DNA of 63,613 nt, the filler included, from Dugesia japonica (Eukaryota): NCBI GenBank assembly GCA_001938525.1. It is 6 parts of 6 records of this genome, joined end to end, with 100 filler letters (N's around TTAATTAATTAA, not from the genome) between each part and the next. Parts side by side here need not be neighbours in the genome. Positions count along the whole stretch, not along the records: positions 10,067 to 19,136 come from MQRL01634352.1; positions 19,237 to 31,733 come from MQRL01614127.1; 4 more parts are not named here. The stretch is one strand, 5' to 3'. The position numbers and the translations under genes are program-made. The notes under the pieces are model-generated. The model saw nothing but the letters and a program-made list of their open reading frames with translations, had not been told where the DNA came from and made no database searches. This document shows positions 2,170-51,896 of the stretch, in pieces (the first letter of the stretch is position 1; the number at the start of each line of letters is the position of its first letter).

Positions 2170-3454
2170 GTAGGTTAACTGAAATAAATATTTTCGAAAA
2201 TACTGAGTTGTTTAATGATTTTANNNNNNNNNNNNNNNNNNNNNNNNNNNNNNNNNNNNNNNNNNNCTCACTCTGGAATGCTCGCATGTAAAATCTATTT
2301 AATTTTAGCTACTTATAATAGTAAGCATATTTTAATTTTTTTTAATTTGAATTCATCATTGTAATCGATATTAATATTTTATAAATTAAACTTATAATAA
2401 TAATAATTATTATTATTATAACAATAATGATAATAATTAATAATAATAAAACAGAAGTATAAAAGTCAATAATCATTTGTATAGGTTTTATTAGGTTAAT
2501 ATAATTTAATAAACTTGTAGTGTTATCATTTTATTTGAAGTAGTTTTATTTATTATTGTCTCTATTATTTTAATTATCAAAGGAATCTATTGAGCCCGGC
2601 ACTGTCTCCTGTCTCAATGTTGGGACAATCGGGATTTATGCTTTATTAATAATTCTTTTTTAAACCTTCGACAAAAATGTTTAACAAAATTAATAATTGT
2701 TTAACAAATTTTATTAACGAAAAACTATAAAGATTTACTGTTTTTATTTTTGGATAAGTGACAATTGAACTTAGATTTGTTTCTACTAGAAGAGTTCCTT
2801 TGGCTTTCTAAAGTTCTTCTTTTATATCTTTGCTTTGTGAAAATTTAGCTTTTTTGCTAATAATTCTAATAATCTAAGGTTCTTTCTTTCAATATTTTAT
2901 TGGCGGTTATCACGTTGTTTCAATTTCAATATTTAGTTTAAAGTTTGATTTGAATTTTATTTCAATTAATTATGTACTTTTATAACATTTGACGGTTGCC
3001 AAGTTTGTATTTTAAATTTAAATTTGTATTTTTTCTGTCAATCATATTTTTTGACATCTACTTCTATAATTTTTATTAAGAATATAAGAATAAGAATATA
3101 CATACACTCATGCGCGTATGTATGTACTTCATAAATTACATTAATGCATTTTTACAAAGAAACCGAAATAAAATAAAAATAGCATTACATGTTTGTTGGA
3201 ATTTGCAAGTGTCTGTGAATTAGAAAACTAATATACGATAACGGTTAATGGATTAGTTTCGGGTATGTAAAAAAATCCCAAAATTAAGGGCGTCTCAGAA
3301 TAAATTAGTTGTAAATATTTGAAAACAAATTTTGATTGGTAGCATTTANATGATTTCAATTGGACGGTCTTATCGAAATCTATATAAATTTAAATGACCT
3401 AACTGCGTAATTAGCCACTAATTTAAGTTGAATAAGATAATCAAATCGGTTCTC

Positions 3455-3733
3455 ATGAAAAAAACTTCAGAAAATTTTAATGGCGATGAAGCAATTATCT
3501 CATATGAATTAGCTTCGGAATATGGTACAATAGAAAAACTGTGTCCGAAGTACGGTTTTATTAAATGTCTTAGCAATGAAAATCAAGAAAAAAGATTATT
3601 CTTTCATTACACTGCAACTAAAAATCCTTTTGAAGAATTACAAGTTGGAGATAATGTTACTTTTCACAGAGGAATTTCTAAAGGAAAACCTCTCGCCAAA
3701 GATATAATATTTCAAAGTCATGTTGTGAGATGA
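3455..3733 (+). CDS. single cold-shock-domain protein resembling CSD1 of UNR/CSDE1
   Basis: GTIEKLCPKYGFIKC...RLFFHY...LQVGDNVTF...GKPLA matches the UNR-type CSD pattern; first ATG at 3455, 92 aa. Confidence 0.8.
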   Translation: MKKTSENFNGDEAIISYELASEYGTIEKLCPKYGFIKCLSNENQEKRLFFHYTATKNPFEELQVGDNVTFHRGISKGKPLAKDIIFQSHVVR

Positions 3734-5857: not shown

Positions 5858-5889
5858 AACTAAACATTTAATATTTAACAATATTCATT

Positions 5890-6065
5890 AAAATAAAAGC
5901 TTCGATCAAATTTTTATTGTTTTTGATAATATTTCGAATTTTTGACTTAGTCTTCAAAATATTATCAAAAACAAAAATAATTTCATCGAAGCTTTTATTT
6001 AAAGGAAATCTGAAAAACGATCAATGGTTTCTTAAATAATTATTCTCGAAATAATTGTAATTGTA
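5890..6065. repeat. inverted pair of Penelope pLTR-like repeat fragments
   Basis: AAATAAAAGCTTCGATCAAA...TGATAAT is mirrored by ATTATCA...TCGAAGCTTTTATTT, then CGATCAATGG...ATAATTGTAATT shared with the copies at 17040, 31310 and 34590; truncated hammerhead at 5931-5957 (-). Confidence 0.7.
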
Positions 6066-6987
6066 AAATGTAAAATATTATTATTACGTAATGCTTCAAT
6101 AATGCTTCTTAAGGAAAAATTATTGAATTTATTTCCGTAAAAATAATTTTTACACCCTTATTCATTTCTGATAATTGAAATAAATTATAAATAGAATTGC
6201 TGTCTTTAAAAAGTGTAAATTTTATAAAAATTCATTTCCAAATTAAAAGTTTATAACTTATATTTAAATATTACTTTATATTATGAATTACTTTTCTTAA
6301 TATTTAAAAAAAAAAATTTGAAGTAAATCAATATTTTACAGTATTTTGATGGTTGTGATCATTATTTTACCGACATTTTCGCTAGGTGAGTTCAGTAATA
6401 CAGTGAAACTTTACACGACGACAAAATTAAACTTATTATCAAGGTAATTAGCATTTTACTAATAATAGTAATTATAATAATAATATTTAATTTATATTGT
6501 TATAGATATTTTCTTTAAAATTATTTTAAATATTTAACTGAATCAAATTAGATTAAATAGTTTATTTAAAATTTGTAAATAGTATATTTATTGTAATATT
6601 AATTTACGCAACAAATAATATTTTTTAGTATTAATTTATGATTGAAATATTTCACATCAAAATCCATATTAGATTGTTATNNNNNNNNNNNNNNNNNNNN
6701 NNNNNNNNNNNNNNNNNNNNNNNNNNNNTTTAAAAACATTTCATTACACTTAAAAAGATCAAAATCAAAAACCTGGTTGCAATTTATTTTTATTTGTTTA
6801 AAATTTTTAATTGGAAATAATTAAACAGGCCGAAGTAATTATTTAGGAATAAAAAACCAAAATTATGACATTTGTAAACTTATACTACTACTAATACTTA
6901 ATTTAATTTATATCGGATTCAAATAAACAAGACCCTAAGTGAATAAACGTAAACATTCCTGAGAATCGATTTAAATCCTTTATGGCT

Positions 6988-8789: not shown

Positions 8790-9713
8790 CTATATATTGA
8801 CATTATAATTCTCCAAGCTCCTCAATATGTACGAGGCAGAAGGACGATCATCAGGTGACTTTATTAATAGTGATCGAATTAGATTTGCAATAAATGGGTC
8901 AAGATGACAAATAAATATTTCAGTGATTTCTTCATTAACTGTCATTTCCGTAATTTTATCATTAGTAATTTTATTTGCGTTAAACAGATGATGGCCAGTA
9001 TAAACAACATGCATAACAACTCCGCATGCCCAAATATCAACGGCTGGAGTTTGTGGATGGTTTAACAAAATTTCTGGAGCCATATATCCTCTTGTTCCAA
9101 TTAATTTTGATTTAGGCTTCATTTCATTGTATCTTTCTGCAATTCCGAAATCGATCAATTTCACTTTTGAAAGAAAACCATTTTTCTTAAAACAAACAAT
9201 ATTTTCCAATTTGATATCGTGATGGATTATCGATATCGAATGCAAATATTCAACAGCACTAAATATCTGTATCATGGTTCTTAATGCTTTAAAATTAAAT
9301 AATCTACCATTATTCTGAATTTCTGTACACAAATCTCCTCCATTCGCATATTCATAAATCAACGATTTATCAACTTTACAATATTCAATGAATTTAATAA
9401 TATTTTTATGATCACCAATTTTTCTCATGATTTTCAATTCATTCTTCAAATAATTCTCTCGTTCATATGTTTTCTGAATGTAAACTTGTTCTGTTTCTAT
9501 ATTAATTATCAAATTAATAGTCGATTCTTTTTCAGAAAATAAAACTTCGTGAATTACATAAACATTATTTATTAAGGGTTTTTTACGAAAATTATCATTT
9601 GTAAAAATTGAACCGAATAAAGTGTTTTTTAGTCTTTCAAAAAAATTCAGTTTATTTTGATTTTGTTTTGGTGATTTATTATATTCATTTCGCAAAAACA
9701 TCTGTTTCAACAT
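8790..9713 (-). CDS. intronless Ser/Thr protein kinase, CAMK-like, divergent
   Basis: 307-aa ORF with YEYANGGDL, IIHHDIKLEN, KLIDFG, GTRGYMAPE, DIWACGV and RPSA. Confidence 0.93.
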   Translation of the reverse strand: MLKQMFLRNEYNKSPKQNQNKLNFFERLKNTLFGSIFTNDNFRKKPLINNVYVIHEVLFSEKESTINLIINIETEQVYIQKTYERENYLKNELKIMRKIGDHKNIIKFIEYCKVDKSLIYEYANGGDLCTEIQNNGRLFNFKALRTMIQIFSAVEYLHSISIIHHDIKLENIVCFKKNGFLSKVKLIDFGIAERYNEMKPKSKLIGTRGYMAPEILLNHPQTPAVDIWACGVVMHVVYTGHHLFNANKITNDKITEMTVNEEITEIFICHLDPFIANLIRSLLIKSPDDRPSASYILRSLENYNVNI

Positions 9714-9966
9714 TTATGGTAATATTAATGGAGAAATTCTAGGTATAGAAAAATATTTTATTGTAAATATCATATATTTGATAAATATTGCGTAATAACT
9801 ATATTATTATTAATACCGGAATTTTATTNNGAGAAATTTTATTCAGATTAATTTCAGTATTAGTATAATTTTTTTGCAAAACATATTTTCTGAAATATCA
9901 ATAATTTCCATTGAAGATGAACTCATTTTAAAATATTAATCGTATATTCTACTCACTATAATAATT

Positions 9967-10066
9967 NNNNNNNNNNNNNNNNNNNNNNNNNNNNNNNNNN
10001 NNNNNNNNNNTTAATTAATTAANNNNNNNNNNNNNNNNNNNNNNNNNNNNNNNNNNNNNNNNNNNN
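9967..10066. other. artificial scaffold-joining linker (N44-TTAATTAATTAA-N44)
   Basis: Same spacer with stops in all frames at 9967-10066, 19137-19236, 31734-31833, 46768-46867 and 55166-55265. Confidence 0.95.
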
Positions 10067-11113
10067 ATTTATAATAAATATTTTCAAAATCAGTAAATCA
10101 TAGAAACAGGAAATTTATTTGTTTAATAACTAATAAAAAATATTTACTTTAAATGTAGAATTTGTCTCAGTAAATTCAATTCTTAAAACATGAATTTGAT
10201 TGGATGAGATTTCATATAAAATATGCTTTGACCAATTTATTGATTTGATTTGTTTGATTGCTAATATGATNNNNNNNNNNNNNNNNNNNNNNNNNNNNNN
10301 NNNNNNNNNNNNNNNNNNNNNNNNNNNNNNNNNNNNNNNNNNNNNNNNNNNNNNNNNNNNNNNNNNNNNNNNNNNATTTATTGCATGATTAGTATTTTAT
10401 AAAAAAATATTTTCCACCCAATATTTTTCATTCAATTTGTGGTCAAAGACTTGAAAAATCTTTGCCGATTTAGGAGGAGTGTCATGTTTTATGGAAAACT
10501 AAGAATATAAAAAAATTGTTAAAAGGTATATTAGGTAACAATTATATCTGTATATACTTTAATCGTGTATAGTAATCACCCAATTGACCCGGTTATACAA
10601 TCAGATATACATTATCTCATTCAGATGTACAAGCAATTATACTTTTACATAAGTGTTTAATTTTTATTAAATTAATTAATATATTCGAACAATAATAATA
10701 CTAAAAATAATAATAATGGTAATAATAATTAAATGCGTATGTAATAAACGACGGTAAATGCTTGATAAAAAANNNNNNNNNNNNNNNNTAAAATAAAACG
10801 TTAATGTTATATTTCGACGTATCAACATTTAGTCGTAAATGCCAATATTTGACTAGACACAGGCCTGCAAAATGGTCAAGAATCCAAAGTCAATTGTTAT
10901 CAATTCAATGCATGATTTTAGATTAAGCTTTAAATTAAATCATTACAGAAAGTTATTACTTATTATCATTAAAGAAAATCATTACCGCTTAGTAAAAATC
11001 ATTACAAAAATTATTACCATTAAAGTAATTATTGTCAAAGTTCATTAAAAAAACTTGTAGATATATTTATATAAAGAATAACCTTCGATCAAAATAAATG
11101 AATTTGTAAAAAA

Positions 11114-11147
11114 GTTCAAGTTTTCGACAATAGTCCTCTTCAGTAAC
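11114..11147 (-). ncRNA. minimal type I hammerhead ribozyme (Penelope pLTR repeat)
   Basis: Minus strand GTTA-CTGAAGA-G-GAC-TATT-GTC-GAAA-AC-TT-GAAC. Confidence 0.7.
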
Positions 11148-11359
11148 ATGACGACTTNTGGATTGATTCAANGCAATAGATCTTTGTTACTCAATTNTCT
11201 AGATTTTATCGGATTTTTATTGGTTCATTTTAATTATGAATTTTAATCTTATTTTTAAATTAAATTAACTCTTAAAACTTTTTAAAAAAAATTTTTTTTA
11301 TTAATTAAATTGAAAAGTTTTTCAGATATTTAATTTTTTTAGTTGTTTTTATATAATGT

Positions 11360-14300
11360 TTTTGGGGTTTCACCTGAGTTGAAATCGAAACAACAGGTGG
11401 CTGGGGAAAATCAACCCTCAGGGGACCCTTCCAAGAATTTAACCTAAAGTCCCTAATTTAGGTATTCAGTGCAGAGTGGTTGACCTCCAACTTCATGGGA
11501 GGTGCACACTCGTACACCTTTGGTTTGGGTTCATGATTTTTCCTTATCAACATAGGCAATAAATTAAACAGAAGTTAATGAGAAACATCTATTAATATGA
11601 CACCTATAATTCTTCCAACACTCCAGGATCTAACCACTAGGCGGGGTCAGTTACTAGAAAATCAAAGGCGGCCAAATCGGCACAATCGTCCCACTGCACC
11701 CAAGCAGGGTTACCTAGCTGGCGCGAAAGATCTGAGAAATACTGTTTTAAAAAATCTATCTTTCGTTGGAGCAACTGTTTGGTTTCATCCTTGAGAGCTT
11801 TGGTTTGACCGGCTAGCTCACCTTGTTTCTTGACAATGAAGTCAAGCTTTTTAATCAACCTGTCCCGCTGAGCGATATGTTTAAGGAGAGCCAATTGGCT
11901 TTCTCCTCTTCAAGTTTCTCTCTATCAACAGGCGGCGAATTATGCGTCGGCATCGTCGGAGGCTATTCGGAAAACAATGCGTGGCACTAAAGTAAGAGAT
12001 GTTATTACACAATTTATTTTCACACATAATTGCAAGTTAGTTTAATAAAATAATTTAGAAAGAAAGATTAATCATAGAACAAGTATCATTTATTTATAAA
12101 TCAACCGTTCTCAAGATCGCGCCGTTTGATTACTCTTATCCACCATTAATGGTTCGAGGGGCCTCGCAGTTTTTAGTTTATGGATTTCCTGAACCAGTTT
12201 ATTCTCACGGTTTTGGTAGGACCGGATAATCTCGGTAAAGGACTCTATTTGAGCCTTCCAGACTCTTTCTTGCTTGTGTGACGCTTCAGCCTCGGCTTTA
12301 AAAGCCAAACACTTTTATAATACCTCTGAACTTTGGCAGCTGCGTTTGCTACATCAGCCTCCCAGCGTCACTTGGCCAACTTATAGAGATCTCATGTGAT
12401 CTCGGTGTCGTCACTAGAAGCCCTCACCTTCTTGGTTGGGGCCGCAACGCGATTCAGTGATGAGTGCACTGGAAGAAAAAGAATTTGATCAATATAATAA
12501 AGATTTGGGGAATAACACCAACTACTTACAATTATTGTTACTCGGTGGACAATTATCTATCCTTAATATTATTTTTAACAAAAGAAAACTTCGAAATAAA
12601 AAAATTTAGTGATAAGTCCGTACAATATTAATCCGTAACAATGAGGGATTTTATTTTAACACACAATGAAAATAATAATAACCCACTACTGGGTAAGTGT
12701 CGAATCAGCCACGGGGGCAGTATTCTCGGAGTCCTTGCTACCCGATGGTTCTCTTACACCCCATAATAAATTGTTAATAAAAGGCTGCACCACTGGGGGT
12801 GGGGCTGCAGGTTGATACTGGAATGTCGTGACAAGGGTTCGATCCGGTCTCGTCCAGCTTTGATAATTTTTTCGCTCGCCAAAATCCTGGATTCTGGCTA
12901 CAAGGGCTTCTACCGGGGTAAGTTCGACCGGTCAGACAAAACACCCGCGTCGCGGTTATGTGGATTCTTATGTCGCCGGAAAATTATGCGACGAATCCTG
13001 CTGTTGATTACCCTCTCCCATATCAATTCCATTTCCGACTGAAATTAAAATTACCGTCAACATAATTCGAGATTCGTAACATCAATAAATATAAAGATAA
13101 AGTTAGTTAAACAATAACAATGAGTGTAGTCAACACGGAATTTTATTTTATGATTCATAGACAGGTTCAACGTCTAGGTCAACCTCCCAGGGAAGGGGAG
13201 ATAATTCCATGAAACACCTTAAATCCGTTTCATCCGGGGAGAGAACAAGATGAGGGAATAGGAGGTGACCAATCAATTGCTTACGACGGGCTTGTTGCCT
13301 TTCTTGGCGAATTAGGTCCAATGTCTCCTTCAGGATTGTAGCCATGTGCCTGAATTAAGGTATCAAAAATCATCCTAGTTAATAAGTCTTTGTGGGATAT
13401 ATTCGTGGCTTATGAAGGTGAGTTTATTCGGCTGCTTTGGTGAAGTCTATTGACGTACCCAAGAGCCTAGCGCCTTCCCAATCTTACTCTGGGGGTAGTA
13501 TTTTTTAAGTTCTACCTGTGAACGTTTATTGAATAGTTATATCAATGATAGTTGTCAACAAAACGCCGACAATCTACGTATTAATCATGATTTTAATGTG
13601 AGTAATAATGATACCGTCAGTCGGGTTAATAAGGGTAGTATTAATCGAGATGATAGTGATATGATTGATAATAATATGCATTACGTTAAAGATAATATTA
13701 AGGATAATAAAAATGTTACTCATAATATTAGTAATATTAATGATAGTGACAGGAATAATAATATTAATGCCGGTAATACGATTAATCGTCGTAATAACAT
13801 TAATAATGCTAATAATACTAAAATTACAAGGAAACTATAATAAAATGATTACGATAGCAATTTGGTTTCTGGCGAGATTATTTTGATATTAATTTGATAT
13901 CAGTGCTCGACCAAATAGCCCAGATTTTATATTATAGTGAATAAAACGCTTCATAATGTGTCACTAATGGTGTTATTTCCATTAATTAACAAAAACAATC
14001 AGTGATGATGTAATATTCTTTCTGTTAATCAGATTAATTCTGGATATAATGTCATCAATTTCGACTCCTACAAAAGTGGGTGCGAGTTGTTGATTGTCAC
14101 ACAAAACGATAACGGATAAGTCAGGAACATTTTTTGTCATAGTGTTTCTCATCAGTAAAATTCCACACCAGTGGCGACAACAACTTTATCCCCATTCATG
14201 GCGAATTCATCTATATCAGTGAATTTGCATCTTACCATTGATAAACGGTGTGTTAGATACTAAACCGGAATTTACACACAGATGGTTGATATATAGACTA

Positions 14301-15655
14301 CGGCCAAGATAATGGTTATCACACACCTGCCTCTGAGTCATTAACACTTTCCTGTCTGGTGTGATTGGATTGATGATATTGATCACGAGTGGAATGTCAT
14401 TTGTTGTGGTTCGGTTAGAAGGGACTAACAACAAACTCATATGCGGCTAGATTCAGATGTCTGCGAAATGGCATGTATCCGAGTGTTGGAGTATAATTTT
14501 CAGAAATCAATGAACGAAAAATGTGGATAAGTATTGGGTTATGCAGCAGGTAATATAAAATAAATTTAATGTTATTTGGCTTCAAAAACTTTTGTTTTCT
14601 TTTTCAGTCGATCTTATTAATATACACCATAATAATTTATCAAGGGTTAAAAAATAGATAATTCTACCTGTGGTATTTATTCACCATCAGCATTTAATAA
14701 CTTTTACATAAATTGAAAATAAAACCAATTTTCATGTATAATAAGATATATTATAGATATTAAAATTTATGAAACAATAAGATTACTTTTTTCTTTTTTA
14801 ACGATAGGCTTTCTGCAATGGGTTTTCCTTGATATTATTATTTCTCCTTAGTCGATAGCTTCAATTCCAAATCTTAAGTAAAATATCTCCTTTTTTTATT
14901 TCGGTTTTTCTGCTAACTATTGGTGAGAATCCTTCACAATCGCGTAAGAATTGTTTAATTGCTTGAGTAAGGTAATTGCCACAAATTAAAAATTGAAAAA
15001 TTGTTGTTGTTTTCAACTAGTTTTCCATGCCTTTTTATAGGATTTCTCGATACAACCCGACTGTGTTCTTGTTGGTCTGTTATTTTTAGATTAGAGTTCT
15101 TAATTTTCATTGGCGTNNNNNNNNNNNNNNNNNNNNNNNNNNNNNNNNNNNNNNNNNNNNNNNNNNNNNNNNNNNNNNNNNNNNNNNNNNNNNNNNNNNN
15201 NNNNNNNNTATGTTTTATTTTTATTTTCTTTGTTTTTATTGGTCCAATCTTCCCGTTTCTGTGAGGGTCCTCCTGATAATGTTAAGGTCTCTAAATGGCA
15301 AAGATCCATTACTCCAATGCATGGCTTTCTCAAATTTTCTTGTGCCGAGCTTTTACGAGCTTTCTGAGACCAGATATCCGTAAAGAACGGATTTTTGACT
15401 AATTTTAATTCATTTTTTATTTAAAATTGATTAATGTTTCTTGATAATAAATTATTTTTCTAGTAATGTTTTACTTCTTTTTATTTTTAATTTCATAATT
15501 TTCTTTTAATTATAATTGATATGGTCGGATTTGTTAAACTAAGATCTTCGTCTCCATCTCCTTTGTATATTTTTCTTTTTTAATTCATCCATGCTGATTG
15601 TTCTCAATTACTTTTCTTTTGCTTTTCTTAACCGACTGGGTGTCTCACCCCAACA
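11360..15655 (-). mobile_element. Ginger-like integrase element (TGTTGGGG...CCCCAACA) with short cargo ORF cassettes, copy A
   Basis: Termini TGTTGGGGTGAGACACC (15655, -) and T(T)TTGGGGTTTCACC (11360, +); flanks ATGT/ATTT; no LTR. Decayed integrase-like sequence at about 14780-15070 (H..H..QAIKQFLRDCEG, then frameshifted RFGIEAID..SRKTH..PIVKK). Cargo ORFs at 13345-13148, 13038-12910, 12468-12111 and about 11986-11637. Confidence 0.6.
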
Positions 15656-16983
15656 ATTTTAATATATTAGTGATTTTTAAAATTTTGTTGTTCGATTATA
15701 ATTTTTAAATATAAGAAATTTTGAAAATTTTTTACAATTATATTATAATTAAAATGTTTTAAAATTTTTGAAATTTTTTGAAATTTTGTATTTTTTTTTG
15801 AAAATTTTGACAATATATTGATAAAACATTTATATTCTGTTTTTAATTTAATTATTTACTATGTATATATAATTAGTGTTTTTATGTGTGTTATATACAA
15901 TTTATGTTATTTTAAAAATGGATTTTCATAAATTTTTTTAAAATTAATTTAAATAAATTATTCTCATATAAAACTAATTTTTTTAAATTAAAGAACATTT
16001 AAAAGTTTCTTTGAACTTCGTATTAAAAAATTTTTTTTATTTAATTAATATTATTTCGTATTTTATATAAATATTTTTATTTTAAACATATTATTTTTTG
16101 ATATTGATATAAGCTCTTTTTATTTAAAATTTTTTTTAATTATTGTAATTGTTGAACAACACATTGATCTGAGGTTTATCATCTTTAATTAATATTTGTT
16201 CATGTTATATTAATTAATTCAATATTTAAATTTCATATGAATTTATTTTTTAAAAAATTATAAATGTGGGTATTTGTGGGTATTGGGATTGATATTGTGT
16301 AGTATTGTGTGTGTTTTTGGAAAGTGCAGGTATATATTTGAGTGCATGTATGTTGTGATGGTTGAAGTATGGTGGAAGATATGTGTGCAAAAGTGAAAGT
16401 GCATTCAAGAGCACTGTGCATTTATTGATTTTAACTTTTTTGAGGTTAGTGTGGTATGTTGTGGTGGTGCAAAAATTCTGACTATACATTGTCAAAAATA
16501 CTTTTGGTGTAAAGTGCATCGTTCTGGCTATGACAGCTGATAGTGTATTGGAAGCGCTGATGAGTTATCGCGCACTTTNTCTTAAAATCTTTAAAGCTTT
16601 CGATNNAAATGTTGGATTTTGATGATTTATGAATTGAAGAGATAATGTGAGGGCGGATATGATGATGATTGGTTTAGGTTGTTTTAATGAATTATTGATC
16701 GGTAATTTGATTGAATAGTTTTTGTAAGTATTATATGGGGTTTAAAAAATTTACCTGGAGTTGTAATATATTTTGTAGGAAAAAGGATGTTATAGTTGGT
16801 TATGGAAAAAACAATTCAAATATTTCAGAGGCGTTAGATTTTCTGTGAATTTTAAAAGATGACGCCGGGGCAGATTTTATATGTATCTTCTGGGTAGTCT
16901 AAATATTTTGCAAGCTCCGGACAGTCCTAATATTTTTTATGTATGTTTCGGGCAGTCTAAAATATGTGAGTTGAATGCATGTT

Positions 16984-17125
16984 GTTCCTGAAGAAGACTA
17001 TTGTCGAAAATTTGAATTTTTTTACAAATAAATTTTATTTTGATCGAAGCTTTTTCTTTATTTTAATGAAATCTCAAATGCGATCAATGGTTAAGTCCAA
17101 CAATTATTCTCACAATAATTGTAAT
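16984..17125 (+). ncRNA. hammerhead ribozyme plus pLTR-like repeat
   Basis: GTTC-CTGAAGA-A-GAC-TATT-GTC-GAAA-AT-TT-GAAT at 16984-17017, then the shared repeat body; (TTA)n tract follows at about 17137-17178. Confidence 0.78.
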
Positions 17126-17135
17126 TATAAAAAAC

Positions 17136-17179
<44 letters not shown>

Positions 17180-17279
17180 CAATATATTATAAGTATATTA
17201 TAAATAAATATAATTAATTACAAAAATGATTAATCAAAATTTTCTTTATTATTTCTTTATAATTTATAATAGAATCTAT

Positions 17280-18403
17280 TAATTGATTATTTGTAAGAAA
17301 TTATTATTTGACCTGGTAATGATCTCCATCAAACAATAATTAATCGATTGTTGTGTTATCCATGCTAATTTCACATTTACAGATTTTGTGTCATTGTCAA
17401 TTATCTCATATGTTTGAAATACATCCGTTTTTGTGAATAAATCTGAAAAGAATTGTTTAAATTAACTTGAATAATATGATTAATTAATAGCATAAATAAA
17501 AATATTAATATTCAAATTCACTTTTGTAGCAATGTTCAGCCGTGTTCATTTCTGAGAATGAATGTTCACATTCAATAACATGTTTATCATAAAAATTTGT
17601 GCTATTTTGACAGGTTTCATTGTGACAAACTGATTCAATTATTTCCTTATAGCAATCATTAAAGAAATTATTTCCTTTCATTTCTAGTTTGATTTGTTCA
17701 GCATTGACCTCAAACCAAAAAATGCATCCAATGATTTTATTTTTGGACCATTCAGAAAAAGAGCCTTTATTGTTAATTTGTTTATTGGAATATCCAAACC
17801 AAATTTTTGTATAACTCTTCATGTTGTGAAAATCTCCAGCATCCGGCCAATCTAATGCTGAATTTTTACAAATCAATATTCAAATAATCAATTTTAAAAA
17901 AATAATTTACAGATTTGTTTATTTCGCTTGGTACTATTGAATACATTTGACAATAATAATAAAAATGATTTGTTCATATTCCGATAATCATATTCAAATA
18001 AATTATTTTGTTTAAATACAATTACCATACGAAATATTTCGGGAAATTTTGAATCTAGATTAAAATCATTAATAATAACAAATACATCAAAATTAACAAT
18101 AATATCGGCTGCTCACATTGACATTGCATGTCAATCCATTGAAATCAATAAGAAAAGTTTTGTCATCATGAAATCTTGTGCTTGTTTTAATTGAAAATTG
18201 GTTTTGCTTTGTATCGATAGCTTGCAATAAATATTTATTTGCAGCACTAATAAAATCAATTCTCATCTTAATTCGAATTCCATTTACAAATTCTCCGTTG
18301 AATTTACCAAATACAAATCCACAACAAATCAATACAGTATTCGTCAAAACTAAATAACCAATCAAAATAATAAAATTAAATCAATAAATTCTTACCTGAT
18401 ACC
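17280..18403 (-). CDS. multi-exon gene for a probable secreted protein (weak BPI/LBP-like resemblance); 5' end in gap
   Basis: Donor near 18395 (GTAAG), exon about 18350-18117 (hydrophobic VLICCGFVFG then GIRIKMRIDFISAANKYL), micro-exons near 18056 and 17935, exon from about 17858, final exon about 17442-17280 (LAWITQQSINYCL). Exon boundaries approximate. Confidence 0.5.
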
Positions 18404-18682
18404 NNNNNNNNNNNNNNNNNNNNNNNNNNNNNNNNNNNNNNNNNNNNNNNNNNNNNNNNNNNNNNNNNNNNNNNNNNNNNNNNNNNNNNNNNNNNNNNNN
18501 NNNNNNNNNNNNNNNNNNNNNNNNNNNNAAATAAAATACATTTATCGAATTTCAAATAAGAATTGTAAGCGTGACTTCAATATTTATGCTACAATAAAAA
18601 ATTAATTGAATTAATGTATTATTTACCATTTAGATTTTAGATTTATGTTGATATAAGTGTAAAAATTCTAATTTAAAACATA

Positions 18683-19136
18683 TTAGGTGTGTGCATTAAT
18701 TTTAAAGGTATTTTTTACAAAATTTTACAAAAAGAAAAGTCGAGAAAAACAGCTTTATTATAAGAAATAGATACAAATTGTTCATTCAAAATATTGACCA
18801 TCGATGGACACTACTTTCTCCTATCTTTCTGGTAAAAGGCNNNNNNNNNNNNNNNNNNNNNNNNNNNNNNNNNNNNNNNNNNNNNNNNNNNNNNNNTTTT
18901 TTATATCCTCATAAGAATGAAAACACTGATCAGACAGGGCATGGGTCATCGATCGGAAGAGGTGAAAATCCGGAGCAATATCTGGGTAATATGGCGGGTG
19001 CGGTAGTATTTCCCAGTTCAGGTTTTCTAAAGTGTCCATTACAACCTTTCCCGTATGTGGGCGAGTGTGTCTTCCTTTATAATCTGGTCTTTTTACCTGT
19101 AACTCTTGACTCAGTTGTTCTATTTGGTGTTTGTAG
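18683..19136 (-). mobile_element. mariner transposon 3' relic
   Basis: WEILPHPPYYPDIAPDFHLFRSM (YSPDLAP motif); TA followed by TIR-like TTAGGTGTGTGCATTAATT at 18683. Confidence 0.9.
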
Positions 19137-19589
19137 NNNNNNNNNNNNNNNNNNNNNNNNNNNNNNNNNNNNNNNNNNNNTTAATTAATTAANNNNNNNN
19201 NNNNNNNNNNNNNNNNNNNNNNNNNNNNNNNNNNNNTCGTTTTCTCCTTCTTTTATTCCAACAATTTGGTATTTATTATTAATTTATTTATCATTATTTA
19301 CTTCTTTTGCAGTTACTAATTCCTTCGGGTTAATTAACTTTCTCCTTTGTGATTAATATAACTTCCGATTTTCCTTTATTTTCTTTTTTATTATTTATTC
19401 CTTTTAATTATGTAATTGTATTTCACCAATTATTTTAATCATTTCTCTTCTTAAATACTTGATTCCATTTCTCGTCATTATTTCGAAACAGCTCATATTT
19501 CATTCTGCTATATTTAACTACTCTTTTATCTCGTTCTAGCCCAACATTAGTATCGTTGAAAAATGATTGATTTTGTGTTGTGAGTGTCG

Positions 19590-21938
19590 TTATATATTAC
19601 TATTATTCTCGATAAGGTAACAAATGATTGTCAGTATTCTAAATTTGAACCTGGTTCTTAAGGTTTTGACCCCCTTACCAATTAAATTATTATGTACTTT
19701 ATCATTAGGATTATAGTTATTGATAAGGTTGTTATTAGTATTACCATTATTTGTCTTATGAAACATTATTGCCTTGAGCATTAAGATTTTACTGAATGAA
19801 ACGAGCTTTCATAACATCCTGTCTAATTATAATAATATACCATTGTGATATGATGATATAATTAGCATCACCATATTATTATTAACATTATCGAACGCTG
19901 GGTTTAGTTTTTCTTTTCCTTTAAAATAATAATGATATTTAATACGGTAGTCTATGCCACATAAATCTTATTTTTAAATGATCTCCGTATTTTAGGTCAT
20001 GCTGGCAGATTTAAAACATACACTGCTTTTGGTTTTAAAACAACGCAAGTCAGCACATCTGAAACAGATTATCAGACATCGGTTATTCCCCAATCTAACA
20101 GAGCATCCCGATGAAACCAACTTAAGTTATTAAGTTGAGATCTTCCCGTTGAACCGTAACGTAGATATTGACAAGGATCTATAACGGAACGAAACCAAAC
20201 TTGTAACTGTGTCTTAATTGGTTTATTTTATTATTTTCTAAAATAAAATCTCAGACCTATTTATCCGCCTTTTATTTCTTTTTCTTTTTGCACATATATT
20301 GTTTATAAATGCCTGTGTAATTTCAGTTGAATTTAAATGGGAGATACTACTCGATTGCCGGACAAGCCGAACGATATTTAAACGGTACAAAAACAGTTTA
20401 ATAGAGGTGCGGGAGTACTAGCTCCAATCTGTCAACCGTAGATGCAAACGACGAACGACGAACGACATTGGGACTCCGCGGAGCATCAGGCTTACTACGA
20501 TTGGACCGGTCCCAATCGGGCCCATGAGACATATCATCCTGTTACCTCTACTCAATAAAATTCTAATGGCAAACCTCAGACAACCAGAGAGTGGCGGGAA
20601 GGCCCCTCCATTGTCCAGTTGTTCTACATCTCATTTGCCTCCCTTTTTCGAATAAAGCGATTTCATCAATAATATGTTATGGAGACTCAGAGAATTAATC
20701 AGATGTTTTTTGTTCGGTCAATAATAAAGTTTTTCGTTGTAGCTTTGTCTTAATGCTTGCGTGGATTCTTTAATTTTGTATTTTGTCTTTAATAATCATT
20801 AAAATAACTTAAAGCTTGTTTAAATATAAATAAGCACTTACTAGATGAGAGTCCGTTGTTATTGATATTATTTTCTTATATTACATTCACCACTCAACCG
20901 ATCAGTTGCTCCCACAAAGAAAATTAGAGAAAGTAGCGAAGACATCGATATGACTTGGGATGTCTACTAACTCGCGAAACGCCATTGAGAGGCTGACTCA
21001 GCTGCCGCGGAGAGTAAAGTAAAACGTTACAAGAGTAAATGTGTCATGTTCAGTAAAGAGGCCGAAGCTTCTCATGCGCCAGAACGCGTCTAGAGTCATT
21101 TGCGGATATCATCCGGTCCCTCAATGACCGTAAAAATAAACTGGTTGCAGCCGTAATGAAGCTGCAAAAGCGCATGCCACTCGAACCCTTAATGGTAGAC
21201 AAGTCGACACAGGCCTCGCGTCAATAACTTGCTGTGATTTTCTTTTATGTATAAAATAAAGTCTTTGTTGTACCTTTATGACTAGTATCCATTTGAAACG
21301 CTTGATTTATAATAACTTAATAGAATTTTATCATTTGAGTTAACTTTTATTTATCCATTTCTTTATAGTGCCCAGAATACTCTTACCCACAATTCTTCGA
21401 CGGTGCCATCGCCTTATACAGAAACTTTTGTTAGAACGACATATTAAGCGACAAAATGAGAGGGCATGGTTACGTCACCTGACCCAGAAAAACCAACTGA
21501 TTAAAAAGTTATACATTATCGTCAAGAAACAAGGTGGGTTGGCACAACACACCAAGCAGCTCCTTCTTCACAAGATAGAGTTTTACAGCAATATATCACG
21601 GACTTGAACAAGAGACCTGGACCCACTGGAACAGCGACGATGACGAGACCGCCTTTAATTTTATAATGGCGAGCCTACCCAGTGGTTAGATTCTGGTGCT
21701 CTGAATTTCATGTAGTACAAAAACCAATAAAATTTAGTTTTAAGTTTCTTTTAATTTACTTGATAAATAAGTCATGGGAAAATTACGAACCCGAAATAAA
21801 GGTATGCGAGTGAGCACTTCAAGTAAACGATGGAAGTCAACCACTCCGTACCGAAGACCTTATAGGATACGTTAGGTAAATTCTTGAATGGGTACCCAGC
21901 CGAATTTTTCTTCTGCAAACTCAGGTGGGATCCCAACA
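19590..21938 (+). mobile_element. Ginger-like cassette element, copy B (3' half)
   Basis: Ends CTCAGGTGGGATCCCAACA (21938); the last 250 bp align to the reverse complement of 11360-11600. Four ORF cassettes at 19999, 20327, about 20884 and 21369 are homologous and colinear with copy A. Confidence 0.7.
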
Positions 21939-23692
21939 CTATTAAATGTATTGTTATGCAACCTAAATCTGATAATTTTGCTATAGTTATAAGTAAATAT
22001 CATGGATTAATTTATTTTCAATTCTGAAATGAATAAATATTTTTTATATTTTTTAACAAATTACATTTGCCAATTATTTGTCCAAATTCAAATTTTTCAA
22101 GGTCATTATAATGAATAAACTCCATTACTATTTAGTAAAAAATTTTCTGAAACAAAAATTTTTAGTAAATTTTTATTTTAATTTGATTATAATTATTATT
22201 TATTTTCAATGAATAAAATTAATTGATTACCTTGGAAATATTTGCCACCAACCAGAATTTCCTAANNNNNNNNNNNNNNNNNNNNNNNNNNNNNNNNNNN
22301 NNNNNNNNNNNNNNNNNNNNNNNNNNNNNNNNNNNNNNNNNNNNNNNNNNNNNNNNNNNNNNNNNNNNNNNNNNNNNNNNNNNNNNNNNNNNNNNNNNNN
22401 NNNNNNNNNNNNNNNNNNNNNNNNNNNNNNNNNNNNNNNNNNNNNNNNNNNNNCCAAACCTTAACAAACAACAATTTTAATATGAAATAACATAATTAAT
22501 TAATGATGCTGGTTAATTTGAATAAAATATTAATTAATTGAATAAATATTATATTAATAAAATGAGAAAAATAATTTCTTAATTAATTAACTGATTTTTC
22601 GAAAATTTATTTTAAAATTAAATGAATTTTATTTTTAATTTTATTAATTTATTTAACATAAAAAATATTTCAAAAAATTTAATTGATTTAATAAATCAAT
22701 TTACAAATAAATAAAAATCGAGGAGAATGAATAATTTTTCTTNTTAAAACCAATTTAGCATTTTTGCAGCATTTCTAAATATTGAAAATATTCAAATCAA
22801 ATTGTAAATGATAAAATGAAAAACCTCATCGTGTTGATAGTTTTCTTCAATTCCAAAATTGATTAAACATTTTTCTAAATCGAATGACAATTCTTTGTGC
22901 TTAAAAAAGATGAATAAATTGTTAAAAGGGCATATTTGAATTGTATTAAAACAAATTTCATGTTTATAATAAACTAACTGGTTTTTTTACACATAAATTA
23001 CTAAAGGAAACTTCAGATTTCTTCGTATTTGAACATGTGGTACAAAACACTTTTAACAAAAATCTCCCGTTAAAATTATCTAAATTATTAAAAAAATTAT
23101 TAAATATTTTCTAAAATTATTTAGAAAATATTTTCAAAATTTTCATTTTCATTTTAAAAATTATTTATTTGAATGATTCCATAATTATTCATCTAATTAA
23201 ATTATTTANATGATTAACTTACAAAATAAAATGCTTTCAGTTTACTTATTCACATTTAAATATAAATGTGGTTATTGACACACAATCACACACACAGTAC
23301 AATAAATAATTGTCTGTGTTCATCTACTAAGAATTGACTATTTACACAAAAATTGTTTGTATATATTAAGAAAAATGCGACCTCAAGATCAGTATAGATA
23401 ATAATTTTATTACATAAAATGTTTAAAGAAAATGTCTACATTGTATTCATAAACTAAAATATATGAAAACCAAAATTCTATATCTATAAATAATATCGAC
23501 TTTATTTTTTATTGGAATCTAAATAGATATCATGAGTTACAAGACCATTTTAAATGATTATTATTTAAAAATAAGCATTTTTTGTATGAATTTTAATGTG
23601 AAAAGTTACATAAAAGTAAAGAATTGTTAAGATATCATATAGTTGGTATATGCATTATTCTGTGAAAATAAAAGATAGTTCCGAGGAGCAAC

Positions 23693-24148
23693 AGTAGATG
23701 GATAGTAGCAGTCCGCACCACGCACACATTCAGTATCCCCCCACCACCATCCCCACCGTGACGTAATGAAATTTAATCCTAATGCATTTAGTTGAGAATT
23801 TAAAAATTGCATCATAAGGTAATATTACTTAATTTGGTGTTACTTTTTCCCTCTGTATTTAGTTGGGAAAATTTTTAGCACACAAATTATGTCATGAAAT
23901 TAATTTCATCGGTNGAATTTAACGTAATAGGATTAACTGGTGTTTAATTTTTCTGTGAATTNANTTGGGAAAATTTTTTAGGCTTCTTAAGCAGCAATAT
24001 TACAATTACAATTCAATAAATTTATAATTAACAAATTGAAAATTAAATTTACTATTATTAGAAAAATATTATATTATTATAATCTGCAATTTTACATTTT
24101 AAAACATTAAAAAATTTACACTTAGAAATAGCTAATAGTAATAATCAG

Positions 24149-24180
<32 letters not shown>

Positions 24181-26243
24181 TGATAATAATAAAAATCAAA
24201 TCTTTTTAAACTAAATGTATTTCTTGTTCTTCTTACTGTTGAAAATGTTATAAGATCCCATCAAAGAGTTTCATTATACACTTTATATGTCTATATTTTC
24301 TACATAATTATATCATCGTTTATGGGATAAATGTTTTATCTCTGTATTTCACTCTATTAGCCTATTTTACTATGGTTTACACATATTTACGCCATTTACC
24401 AAGTTTTACCAAGATCTACCATATATTTTACACCTATTCACCTCATTTTACTCTGTTTTCACTATATTAAACCTTTCTTTTACCCTAGTTTACCATATTT
24501 TTACCATGTTTACCCTATTTTAACCTGTTTTTACCCGGGTTTCCCGATTTTACCATGTTTTAACCCTGCTTATCCTGTTTGACCCATTTACACTATTTTG
24601 ATTTATTTTGCCAGATTTTCTCATATTTGGAAGAGTTTTCTATATTTTACCGGATTTTATCATATTTTCTTTATATATTTGTATTAAGTTTCAAATGATA
24701 ATAACTCATGGTTTATTCTATTGAATGAAGGATTGAATCTGTTATAATTTAAGTTAAATATAGGTTTAAACATGAAAAATATGAGTTTTATCTTTTCAAT
24801 AAAATCCTTCACTATTTGCCTTCATATTTNNNNNNNNNNNNNNNNNNNNNNNNNNNNNNNNNNNNNNNNNNNNNNNNNNNNNNNNNNNNNNNNNNNNNNN
24901 NNNNNNNNNNNNNNNNNNNNNNNNNNNNNNNNNNNNNNNNNNNNNNNNNNNNNNNNNNNNNNNNNNNNNNNNNNNNNAACATTAGAAAATAATGGTTCAT
25001 CGCTGAAAGTATTAGCTTTATCATAGAAAAGTTATAGACTTATTGAAAATATAAGTTTAACATAGAAAGTAATGTCTTGGTCATATAAAAATATTTAATA
25101 GAGTAAACCAGTCACTAATTATACGGCATTTATTATATAGATAGCCATTTAATATGTTTAATTTATACACAATTCGTCACTTTTTACCATATTTTGCCAT
25201 ATTTATAGTCATTTACCAACATTTACCCCTATTTAAAGATATTTAGCTATATTTCCTCTTATTTTCTATTGTATCTTAATACATATTTTCACTTCCTATT
25301 TTCATAGACCTCACTTCACTAATCTTTAAAAAGTGTTATATATTAATAAAAGAAATCAATAAGACTGAGTGATAGTGAGTAAGAGTTGATATGACATGCT
25401 TTTTATTTAAAACAATATAACTATTTCAGTATATTTTAATCGCTTGATTATCCTTTCTACTTCTTTGCTTACTCCTTGGTTCCCAGCGTGCACCTTGGCA
25501 ACCCTGCTTGCACTTTGGTTTCCATGGGNNNNNNNNNNNNNNNNNNNNNNNNNNNNNNNNNNNNNNNNNNNNNNNNNNNNNNNNNNNNNNNNNNGTTTAA
25601 CATAGAAAATACGGGTCTTATTATTAGAAATACTTGATTCAACATTAAAAATATAGGTTTAATGGAAAGCAGGGATTTTATCATGAAAAAACTGGTTTTA
25701 ACAAGAAAATATGGGTTTTATAATGAAATATGAAGGGCAGTAAACCAGATTCTTTTATTAAAGCGATTGTTGTAAGTAGTCCTACTACATTATAATTTAT
25801 TATTTAGAACTTAAATACCCAAAAACTACCAATCCCGAGCCAATATTAGACTAAATTTATCTGAACCAGCCAAACAATTGACCTCATTCGACCTTACCAA
25901 GAAAACCTTCAACTAATTTCAACTAAACCAATCAAAAATTGACCTAATTTAAACTCACCGAGCAAATTCCCAACTAAAAAGCCTAAAAATATTGCTGCTT
26001 AAAAAGCCTAAAAACTTTCCCTACTAAATACACAGGGGAAACGTAACACCACATTACCACTAAAAAGCCTAAAGAATTATCCCAACTAAATACACAGGGA
26101 AAAAGTAACACCAAATTAAGTAATTTTACCTAATGATGCAATTTTTAAATTCCCAACTAAATACATTAGGATTAAATTTCATTACGTCACGGCGGGGGGC
26201 TAATGATTGTGTGCGTGGAGTGCATTGCTACTATTTATCTACT
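23693..26243. mobile_element. non-autonomous Maverick/Polinton-type element
   Basis: About 300-bp TIRs beginning AGTAGAT..ATAGTAGC; perfect 6-bp TSD AGCAAC at 23687-23692 and 26244-26249; interior of 10-11-bp tandem repeats with no ORF seen. Confidence 0.8.
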
Positions 26244-26286: not shown

Positions 26287-27700
26287 TAGGGCTGCAAACG
26301 ATTAATTTAAATTTAATAGTTAACTTTGGATAAATTAAAGATTAATTAATAGTTAATTTCGATTAAATCATGAAAACAAAAACTTTAATCACATAAGTCA
26401 CATTTATAGTTGTATTTGTCGAAAATCGAAATAACTCTAGATAAGCTTGTTCATATGTCATCTAATAACCAACTACACAAACAGACGAGCATGTTGACAG
26501 TATTTGGTTCAAGTGATGAGCAAGTCATATTAACAATATAACCAACAGTGCTTAACAGTCGTTCACATGGAACTGAGGTAGCTAGTATGCACAGAATCTT
26601 TCTTCTCCATTTTATAACGCAGTAATTTATCAGAAGTGCTGTCGATATGATCTTCAGTGTCTGAGTCAGAGTCAGATTCCATTAGCTTAATACGCTTTTC
26701 ATTTGGTTCACAAATACTATCTTTATCAATATCAGTATCATAATCATTCATTGCAGCAGCCTCCATCTGCTCACTATGAACATCAACTGCTATTTGTTGT
26801 TCAACACATGACCAAGTTCGTTATTTTTCATTTTCTGACAAACACTTCAGGTATTTGTAGAGTGCATCAAGTGCTGTTGCAATCGGCAGTAATTCAATAC
26901 TTGTCATATCAGGTACAAATTCATTGAAATCCTTAACACTTGAACACTAGCTGCCTTGAATCTGGCTATGTCATGTTCTTTGTCAACGATGATAGCAGTG
27001 GCAATACATAGCTGCATGAGACATAACCTTCACCACCAAGTAGGACCGTGACCTGCCAGAATAAGTCCAAAACTTTGACAAACTTTTTGAAATCTTCTCC
27101 CAATCCGAATCTGACAGTTTTGGATCTTTTTATTGCTTCTTTTCATCTGACATGTAGAAAGTGAGTGCTTCTCTGGTCTGCAAAAGACTCTGCAGCAAAG
27201 TAAAAATACTGTTCCACTTGTTTGGTACATATTGTTGCAGCTTTCACAATGTTGACTCAGTACAATTTTCCTATTCAGTTGTGTTTACAGTACTATGTCT
27301 AAAATGTCTGACCATTTTTCGACATTTGCCAAACAATTTTTCAGTATTAGCGGCTTTAAATCCATGCAATATGCTTAGCTGTATGTTATGAGCCAAACAT
27401 GGAATATGAGCAAAACCAGTTTTATGAACAGCCGAAACCATATTTCTTACATTATCTGTAACTAGAGCCTGAATCCTGTTCGTTACATCCCATTCTGTTG
27501 CGAACTGTTTATATAACTCGGCAACATTGTCAAAATAATGACGTTCAACAACATTCACACATTCAAGAACAACACTTTTCAACTTCCAGTCATCGGTAAT
27601 CCAATGGCTAATGATTTCACAATATGTTTCGTTGCATTTGCCGAAAAATACGTAACGTTTTGCATTTTTAATTATGTAATCCATTTACTATGAAATTTAG
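26287..27700 (-). mobile_element. hAT (ZBED1/4-like) transposon relic
   Basis: TIR TAGGGCTGCAAACGATTAAT at 26287; HWITDDWKLKSVVLEC, VTDNVRNMV, HIPCLAHNIQL, NKWNS and dimerisation-like SLEPNTVNMLV. Confidence 0.9.
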
Positions 27701-31304: not shown

Positions 31305-31530
31305 ATTGCAATTATTGTGAAAATAATTGTTGGACAAAACCATTGATCGATTTTCAGAATATATTTAAAATAAAAGCTTCGATCAAAATTATTTTTTTGG
31401 ATTTGATAATAATTCTATATTTCGACTTTGTCTTCGTTAGGAATTGATTTACGAAGACAATGTCGAAATATAGAATTATTATCAAAAACCAAAAAAACAA
31501 ATTTTGATTGAAACTTTATTTTATTGAATT
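31305..31530. repeat. inverted pair of hammerhead-bearing pLTR repeats
   Basis: Minus copy AATTC-CTAACGA-A-GAC-AAA-GTC-GAAA-TA-TA-GAATT (31411-31445); 5'-truncated plus copy ACGA-A-GAC-AAT-GTC-GAAA-TA-TA-GAATT (31451-31477). Confidence 0.75.
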
Positions 31531-34340: not shown

Positions 34341-34517
34341 AATAAAACTGTTTTTTTCAAGAATATTACATGCTCTTAGCAAACAGTTAAAGTCGCGGTG
34401 GAAACCCTTCGCAAGCAGAACTTCTTACTGCGAATATTATTTTAAAATTTCTATTAATTGAATTATCTGCCCGAAATTCTTCACTTAGTTTATTATTAAA
34501 AGAAATTTTTTTTCCTG

Positions 34518-51836: not shown

Positions 51837-51896
51837 ACTGCACCACAAAAATAATATGAGATATGTGTAATAAAGGGAGATACTCCTAGACATACC

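Follow-up and report, generated by a model that had tools for sequence, protein, structure and literature searches.

Decayed Solo-LTR-Like Elements of Dugesia japonica Carry an Array of Small Genes, Likely Alternative Last Exons, Some with Start Codons Probably Completed by Splicing

Introduction

Two related elements, copy A on the minus strand and copy B on the plus strand, lie in a 63,613-nucleotide (nt) stretch of Dugesia japonica DNA (GenBank assembly GCA_001938525.1) that was analyzed as a whole and is referred to here as the window. The window consists of AT-rich DNA with assembly gaps, host genes, and many decayed mobile elements. Each copy carries four short coding cassettes, C1 to C4, in the same order and separated by spacers. 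Here, we describe the cassettes, the element that carries them, and the way in which they may have been expressed. The interpretation that we favor, with moderate confidence, is that the two copies are decayed solo long terminal repeats (LTRs) carrying alternative last exons, several of which have start codons completed by splicing.

Organization of the Cassettes in the Two Copies

A sequence-only reading of this DNA had described four colinear peptides in two diverged copies, spacers that cannot be aligned by eye, and stop codons in both copies, and all three observations held up. Six-frame translation and alignment place C1 to C4 in both copies as listed below, with positions counted along the window and a slash marking a splice point.

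13148-13349, minus strand: C1 of copy A; first exon base 13349, own ATG at 13345, 65 codons, open; AATAAA at 13147
12686-13038, minus strand: C2 of copy A; acceptor 13038, own ATG at 13032, Arg-rich start; a stop and a frame change; AATAAA at 12655
12111-12468, minus strand: C3 of copy A; AG/TG acceptor 12468, phase 1; stops and a frame change; AATAAA at 12094
11604-11986, minus strand: C4 of copy A; AG/TG acceptor 11986, phase 1; frame changes, stops at both 11637 and 11604; predicted to form a helical hairpin
19996-20184, plus strand: C1 of copy B; acceptor 19996, own ATG at 19999; one internal stop; AATAAA at 20242
20327-20655, plus strand: C2 of copy B; acceptor AG/TT, phase 1, no ATG; broken, end (20655) placed by eye; AATAAA at 20651 and 20723
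20882-21227, plus strand: C3 of copy B; no acceptor left, alignment gives phase 1; broken, with its stop at the same codon as in A; AATAAA at 21255
21369-21715, plus strand: C4 of copy B; AG/TG acceptor, phase 1; broken after 78 open codons; AATAAA at 21726

The peptides of the two copies resemble each other above chance: within the window, tblastn matches C3 at E 3e-14, C1 at 3e-8 to 6e-8, and C4 at 4e-9 to 2e-6, and C2 is weaker, with a local score of 28 (p 0.005, 200 shuffles). Paralogy among C1–C4 was not detected, one marginal C1–C3 score in copy A (p 0.01) being found among 66 pairs. The spacers are 21-26% GC, reach 42-48% identity under forced alignment, and show no codon pattern. Both copies are decayed, and C1 of copy A is the sole cassette that is open from end to end. 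The end of C4 is ambiguous: copy A has a stop at 11639-11637, and in copy B the cassette continues to 21713-21715, which is aligned to a second in-frame stop of copy A at 11606-11604. A motif at the end of C4 (21680-21703 in B; 11640-11620 in A) is far better kept in the family, with a depth of 3,677 in the public DNA run X1 versus 128-737 nearby.

Selection on the Cassettes

A protein-guided alignment of A with B, covering 307 codons in eight frame pieces, gives identities of 0.59, 0.72, and 0.34 at the first, second, and third codon positions. Over the same codons, the ratio of nonsynonymous to synonymous differences per site (pN/pS) is 0.41 (bootstrap 0.35-0.48), with synonymous divergence (dS) saturated; this ratio, which is not about 1, bears out purifying selection in the comparison of the two copies. 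Protein-guided alignment favors coding signal, and the selection test was therefore repeated on a DNA alignment made without regard to frame. Here, the annotated frame has 87 synonymous codons among 211 changed ones (41%) and 7 codons that bear a stop. Four other frames have 5-10% synonymous and 24-37 stop-bearing codons; for the mirror antisense frame, the values are 30% and 17. Divergence at third positions is seen in the cassettes and not in the spacers. Because of the codon-position pattern and the frame-blind control, the cassettes are recognized as real genes on this strand that were under purifying selection and have since decayed.

Stop Codons and Poly(A) Signals

The stop of C3 falls on the same codon in both copies with different triplets, TGA in A and TAA in B, and the stops of C4 are aligned between the copies (11604 in A, which has an earlier stop at 11637, and 21715 in B). 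The poly(A) signal AATAAA occurs within 80 nt after seven of the eight cassette ends, compared with 1.14 predicted by dinucleotide shuffles, the exception being C4 of copy A. When the by-eye end of C2 in copy B is set aside, the count is 6/7, with a P of ~3e-5 that is generous: the reverse word is also present at four of the eight ends, and the two copies are related by descent. Aligned stops in C3 and C4 and signals after nearly every end agree with the earlier proposal of separate terminal exons, each with a stop of its own.

The cassettes could instead be exons of one ordinary multi-exon gene whose stops are products of decay. Both copies are decayed, as such a gene would need, and donor-like sites occur within C1, C2, C3, and C4 of copy A. 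However, none of these internal sites is a consensus donor in both copies, amino-acid conservation runs past them up to the aligned stops, and AATAAA after the stops is far above chance. One multi-exon gene is disfavored because the stops are aligned, AATAAA follows the ends, and no internal donor is common to both copies; it is mostly refuted, and we give it hardly any credence. The cassettes are quite likely alternative last exons that were spliced to separately.

Entry Sites and Split Start Codons

The first exon base after an AG is 13349, 13038, 12468, and 11986 in copy A and 19996, 20327, and 21369 in copy B; at the aligned position of C3 in copy B (20882), the AG is absent. The claim that each cassette follows a pyrimidine-rich YAG (pyrimidine-AG) stands for the AG at seven of eight sites and fails in part for the tract, a simple pyrimidine-tract filter being passed by four of the seven intact acceptors (C3 and C4 of A, C1 and C4 of B) and also by 11 other sites in the two copies. 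The acceptor calls therefore rest on position and conservation rather than on score.

One common entry phase, as had been suggested, is found at five of the eight sites, where the conserved frame opens at exon base 3 (C3 and C4 of A; C2, C3, and C4 of B), that is, in phase 1. At C3 and C4 of copy A and C4 of copy B, the exon begins AG/TG, the open reading frame (ORF) has no ATG of its own, and the rest of the codon is in frame. These three cases had been recognized correctly, and the set was incomplete: C2 of copy B reads AG/TT GAA, also in phase 1 and without its own ATG, and C2 of copy A has an ATG 6 nt past the acceptor. TG follows 4.5% of 110 background acceptor-like sites in the window. 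Among family contigs at least 80% like B, the only ones aligned to it, no other letter reaches 40% or more at 21367-21370 of the C4 acceptor (depth ~295; full 37-row table), and AG/TG is therefore the majority state among family copies at this site. These patterns point to assembly of the start codon from A and TG by splicing at C3 and C4, which we consider probable.

Trans-splicing was one of the routes first envisaged, but a spliced leader that ends in ATG would give the wrong frame at C3 and C4. The flatworm spliced leaders reported in the available part of one article end in ATG (PMC12582326). A leader of this kind reads from exon base 1 and is compatible only at C1 and at C2 of copy A; at C3 and C4 of A, C4 of B, and C2 of B, the frame from exon base 1 comprises 4, 7, 21, and 24 unconserved codons. 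A polycistronic, operon-like unit resolved by trans-splicing would share the anatomy seen here, namely stop, AATAAA, AT-rich spacer of 110-220 nt, and acceptor, and would suit the own ATG of C1 in both copies and of C2 in A. It is very unlikely in view of the short, unconserved frames that such a leader would open at C3 and C4.

The Carrier Element

The features of the carrier and of a further element with similar ends, element C, are the following.

11360-15655, minus strand: complete copy A, 4,296 bp with a gap of 92 N at 15117-15208; solo-LTR-like
11356-11359, no strand: left target-site copy ATGT, matching the right copy in 3 of 4 letters
15656-15659, no strand: right target-site copy ATTT, matching the left copy in 3 of 4 letters
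13360-15655, minus strand: 5' half of copy A, lineage-specific, with an A-rich start and, on the opposite strand, an Asn-rich stretch and an intron-like GT-AG
13481-13490, minus strand: second donor-like site AGA/GTAAGA (13488/13487), in copy A only and absent from B; stronger than the terminal-block site
11360-11544, minus strand: terminal block of copy A, non-coding pattern, donor-like A/GTGTG (11510/11509); X1 summed depth 19,770
21770-21938, plus strand: terminal block of copy B, ending CCCAACA, donor-like A/GTGAG (21809/21810)
32316-33849: element C, with ends TGTTGGGG...CCCCAACA matching in 9 of 9 letters, a perfect GTAG duplication, and a 250-N gap in the middle

Copy A has the end sequences TTTTGGGGT at 11360 and ACCCCAACA at 15655 and is flanked by ATGT and ATTT. 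Its inverted ends are of the TG...CA type, matching in 8 of 9 letters, and the match stops after 9 bp; neither a long repeat within the copy nor an inverted-arm pair at its ends was found. One contig of the run X1 (depth 10) joins 11350 to 15655 and represents the uninterrupted target; X1 may be the source of the window and hence is not independent support for the locus itself. At the right end of copy B (21938), the X1 depth drops from 764 to 3.65. The terminal block that A and B have in common is their best-conserved DNA (69%), has no codon pattern, and in copy A is likely the promoter/R/U5 end. The terminal block of element C aligns weakly with those of A and B, with scores of 42 and 46 against a best of 37 in 500 shuffles.

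The element displays short TG...CA inverted ends, a 4-bp duplication (3/4 letters in A, 4/4 in C), sharp boundaries, and high copy, as expected of a solo LTR; TG...CA ends are also stated for rotifer LTRs in the accessible text of PMC5408684. The solo LTR fits because of the TG...CA ends, the 4-bp duplication, the lack of long inverted repeats, and the lack of a transposase in the frames tested. Copies A and B most likely represent solo LTRs from a large retrotransposon of the Ty3/gypsy type, and we hold the LTR identity of the carrier with considerable confidence.

The X1 contig depths, which when summed are a rough sign of abundance and not a copy number, amount on copy A to 467-642 at C1, 921-1,400 at C2, 1,191-12,315 at C3, and 345-1,532 at C4, and to 46-235 over most of 13360-14979, with exact-match contigs at 6-12. 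Because of these depths, the family is seen to be very abundant and its 5' half to be lineage-specific.

The sequence-only reading had placed the array inside a DNA transposon, and this was not sustained: the ends are LTR-like with a target duplication, and neither an extended terminal inverted repeat nor, in the frames tested, a transposase was found. A non-autonomous element of DNA-transposon type with an internal promoter would share the TG...CA ends and the 4-bp duplication, a combination that we take to be of the Ginger-like type. Such an element would be consistent with the lack of a visible primer-binding site (PBS), polypurine tract (PPT), or gag-pol link, with the internal donor-like site of copy A, which ends in A and lies 138 nt before C1, and with a mariner-like fragment near B (Pfam E 0.06). 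Against it, the inverted ends span only 9 bp, the two ends differ in kind (an A-rich start versus a conserved non-coding end), copy B lacks the internal donor, and the mariner-like piece lies across an N stretch from B and has no counterpart at A. No transposase or integrase was found in the Pfam-tested frames of copy A, in which no Pfam family scored at E <0.008 (11300-14600 in part, with 14600-15655 left out). We regard this alternative as quite improbable.

The LTR might also run the other way, the cassettes then forming an antisense unit driven from mid-LTR, for which antisense ORFs of the HBZ type and those of plants are a parallel. No PBS or PPT fixes the orientation, and the opposite strand of copy A, with its Asn-rich stretch and intron-like GT-AG, allows that the middle may be a two-way promoter. 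The cassette strand, however, starts A-rich (skew +0.30), like the coding strand of the gypsy element of the window described below. In addition, RNA reads aligned to the terminal block of either copy mostly have their first mate on the strand opposite to the cassettes, as would be expected of sense RNA from dUTP (deoxyuridine triphosphate)-stranded libraries, if that is what they are; the counts are small, and one C3 bin is reversed. An antisense unit is therefore given the slightest of chances, and we infer the cassette strand to be sense.

Several smaller observations concern these elements. The Asn-rich frame on the opposite strand of copy A (13500-14620, plus strand) has a clean 58-nt GT-AG intron-like stretch at 14550-14607 and no Pfam match, and copy B has an Asn-rich antisense stretch at ~19550-19950; these frames may belong to a fifth, divergent gene. 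On the cassette strand of copy A, two pieces that are richer in GC and look coding (15211-15420 and 14800-15116, minus strand) may be further cassettes. A fragment at 18899-19135 (minus strand), across the N stretch before copy B, resembles a mariner-like transposase with an HPPYYPDIAP motif (Pfam DDE_3, E 0.06). The word CTATT-TG at 19120, considered as a left end for copy B, was dismissed because it falls within this mariner-like frame, and a Walker-A-like word opposite the terminal block of A was rejected, the stretch being absent from B. Element C has a 50-codon hydrophobic frame on the minus strand near 32910-32760. The segment 58671-58870 is 80% identical to the right end of element C and is probably another LTR end.

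Donor Sites, Leader, and RNA Evidence

On the cassette strand, an A followed by GT, A or G, A or T, and G occurs twice in the 4,296 nt of copy A (13488, 11510) and once in 2,701 nt of copy B (21809). The sites at 11510 and 21809 are homologous and lie within the non-coding terminal block. No other letter reaches 40% or more at 21809-21814 (depth ~3,100; 37-row table), and the whole block is conserved, so this agreement is unspecific. The terminal-block site is our preferred candidate for the donor of a shared leader, on the evidence of its position and sequence, although we would not rate this as probable. It lies downstream of the cassettes and would therefore be usable only from the 5' LTR into the 3' LTR.

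The same LTR and last exons could be served by a shared upstream coding exon that has its own ATG and ends in phase 1. This possibility fits all phase-1 entries equally, and in both copy A and element C an ATG that shares the frame of C3 and C4 stands 25 nt upstream of the donor-like site. As a precedent, the env of the ZAM and Beagle subclade is spliced to a short upstream peptide, according to the available part of bioRxiv 2023.08.03.551782. Copy B, in contrast, lacks an ATG before the terminal-block donor and has a stop in that frame, in neither copy would C1 be in frame with such an exon, and the common TG that opens unrelated cassettes (background 4.5%) is left unexplained. A coding leader is thus unlikely, while keeping a modest share of the probability.

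Reads from five oligo-dT or complementary DNA (cDNA) runs of RNA labeled as the same species were aligned, the comparison covering 6-26% of each run. Reads on copy A number 91, 255, and 114, nearly all of them partial matches and many on AT-rich flanks, and those on copy B number 11, 5, and 14, all less than 95% alike. On copy A, the run X3 covers the terminal block and the central part of C3. Because of these reads, diverged relatives of the element are seen to be transcribed at a low level. No RNA dataset was listed as containing copy A, a result that says nothing about its expression. In planarians, LTR elements are de-repressed by PIWI knockdown (PMC8532177).

Proposed Mechanism

Complex retroviruses splice accessory genes across gag-pol into downstream ORFs. 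By this model, transcription of the intact element would be initiated close to the end of the 5' LTR, and a short non-coding leader ending in A would be cis-spliced across gag-pol to one cassette per transcript in the U3 part of the 3' LTR. Each cassette would use its own stop and its own poly(A) signal. C1 would supply its own ATG; for C3, C4, and probably C2, the ATG would first be formed where A meets TG at the junction. The products of C3, C4, and probably C2 could therefore not be made from unspliced genomic RNA, and a solo LTR could not express the cassettes in cis because the donor would lie in the other (5') LTR. Alternatively, an internal U3 promoter may be used with the donor at 13488 that is present only in copy A. 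As a whole, the picture of a giant LTR as a multi-gene unit, with at least four alternative last exons in U3 and one far-LTR donor whose A completes the starts, is speculative and on balance doubtful.

A number of points weigh against the interpretation offered here. With respect to the carrier, the target duplication of copy A has one mismatch and its left end lacks the G at position 2, and the end search found neither a left boundary nor a target duplication for copy B. No PBS or PPT was seen among the loose ends listed (24 of 1,332 for A, 7 of 189 for B), no gag-pol was seen beside either copy, and the gypsy element of the window has no DNA similarity to A or B. With respect to the starts, a phase-1 junction could equally give GTG, CTG, or TTG or continue an upstream coding exon; the own ATG of C1, at offset 4 in A and 3 in B, is out of phase with a phase-1 exon, and in copy A, C2 is entered in phase 0 and has an ATG of its own at offset 6. 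The terminal-block donor is weak, reading GTGTG in A and GTCTG in element C; RNA reads extend through the block, and copy A has, 25 nt upstream of the donor, an ATG whose frame is that of C3 and C4. In the five RNA runs, no read enters at any acceptor and no RNA joint involves a cassette, the test being weak in that few reads aligned and most came from diverged relatives. Full-length genomic RNA would have to ignore the internal U3 poly(A) signals, which is assumed. Lastly, the selection statistics rest on two copies only, and the searches described next found no protein homolog behind any proposed cassette function.

Protein Products and Homology Searches

Among the pieces tested, C2 and C4 have Arg-rich starts with isoelectric points of 11.8 and 11.5, C1 is acidic overall, and all are hydrophilic, with grand averages of hydropathy of -0.25 to -0.88. 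A two-sequence model of C4 has two long helices (pLDDT 64). The products are predicted to be small proteins, either basic or coiled-coil, that lack signal and membrane segments. By analogy, they might act as intracellular regulators of the element's own RNA, in export, expression, or anti-silencing, an idea we put forward as a possibility only.

Searches for relatives were negative within their scope. In Pfam, cassette pieces gave sub-threshold matches of coiled-coil type (best E 0.008), this being the one search that included C2. Word-based searches with C3 and C1 over limited length ranges scored no match, HMMER with the C4 alignment found 0 matches over 1.84 billion representatives, and PDB sequences gave nothing below E 0.03. 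In the ESM Atlas, C4 had no match and C1 had weak bacterial matches (0.91, 129-138 shared features), with recognition below threshold. No related loci were found in phages, viral contigs, or metagenomes, and positions 9000-25000 have no Rfam match and no transfer RNA (tRNA).

Other Features of the Window

48056-54200, plus strand: decayed gypsy-type element with gag, then an ORF for a Monjiviricetes-type fusion glycoprotein (Pfam PF24664, E 1e-28), then protease, reverse transcriptase, and ribonuclease H

The gag-env-pol order of this element is the flatworm errantivirus order. Other fragments have the look of a hAT transposase (26454-27684, minus strand, by eye), a Polinton-type integrase (34011-34376, plus strand, Pfam rve_3 E 6e-4), and a Penelope-like reverse transcriptase (56318-56674, plus strand, by eye). 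A dispersed palindromic family resembling miniature inverted-repeat transposable elements, 73-87% alike, occurs at 5874-6086, 11065-11148, 16983-17146, 31305-31529, and 34520-34674. Host genes are represented by an intronless Ser/Thr kinase ORF (8793-9713, minus strand), a zinc-transporter-like exon (1289-1846, plus strand, named by eye), a cold-shock-domain exon (3422-3730, plus strand), and an SSDP-like gene (39069-40430, minus strand, named by eye).

Comparison with Known Systems

Accessory genes in U3 are familiar from complex retroviruses, as in sag of mouse mammary tumor virus (MMTV), nef of human immunodeficiency virus (HIV), and tas/bet of foamy viruses, and the adenovirus late unit serves several ORFs. 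These viral units share with the present array one leader to several downstream ORFs, ORFs in U3, and alternative poly(A) sites. They differ in belonging to vertebrate viruses with one or two U3 ORFs, each with its own ATG, and homology is not claimed.

Among elements of invertebrates, the giant Ty3/gypsy element Burro (GYPSM1) of dugesiid planarians has thousands of copies, mentioned accessory ORFs, an internal part of up to 25 kb, and a total of over 30 kb, which implies LTRs of several kb; decayed fragments are reported in a related genome (PMC6431247, available portion). Burro resembles the family described here in high copy, long LTRs, and accessory ORFs, and the gypsy element at 48056-54200 has its gag-env-pol layout, which is also found in errantiviruses of Platyhelminthes, Nematoda, and Bryozoa according to the accessible text of PMC13524379. 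The comparison with Burro is by description only, and the description, as far as it is available, is without an ORF array in the LTR, spliced last exons, or a split start.

In the springer subclade of Drosophila errantiviruses, env is spliced to an AU dinucleotide that completes its start (bioRxiv 2023.08.03.551782, available part). This is a likeness in that a Metaviridae element has a splice-completed start codon; in contrast, the present case has several small non-env ORFs within an LTR-like unit, a putative A/UG split, and separate poly(A) signals. The accessory protein CERV of Cer1 in C. elegans is spliced and is needed for export of unspliced genomic RNA (PMC10309623, excerpt). As a spliced Ty3/gypsy accessory gene without outside homologs, it offers a model for function, but by the available description, on which the comparison is based, it is a single 517-amino-acid (aa) protein from five exons, shares exons with gag, and lies before the 3' LTR. 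The sORF1 and sORF2 of the Drosophila MDG1 group, of ~110 and 70 aa, evolve under purifying selection and are separated by an alternative poly(A) site (bioRxiv 10.1101/2025.03.14.642691, partial text). They are likewise small selected accessory ORFs with an alternative poly(A) site, yet they lie upstream of gag and are reported as unspliced, and sORF2 is membrane fusogen-like whereas the cassette pieces are hydrophilic. By hydropathy, without a dedicated membrane predictor, the C1–C4 pieces are too hydrophilic for a fusogen of the sORF2/FAST-like kind.

Thus a splice-completed start (springer env), small selected ORFs with alternative poly(A) (MDG1), and accessory ORFs (Burro) are already known. 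Full-text searches of the accessible literature turned up no array of separately accepted, separately polyadenylated small ORFs in an invertebrate LTR, although the primary paper on Burro or Repbase may hold one.

Implications

The usual picture of an invertebrate LTR retrotransposon has non-coding LTRs and no more than one additional spliced gene. The significance of the array is limited in that the copies are dead and the splicing mechanism is inferred from sequence. If the interpretation is true, a selected array of small genes in a 4.3-kb LTR would represent complex-retrovirus-style regulation in a Ty3/gypsy-type element and would explain why such LTRs are so long. Under the more speculative reading with a donor in the far LTR, accessory proteins could be made only from a complete two-LTR element after splicing, and thousands of solo LTRs would be translationally silent. 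A shared one-letter start-codon switch would tie the translation of several genes to splicing, and the four new protein families would be testable in an animal amenable to RNA interference (RNAi).

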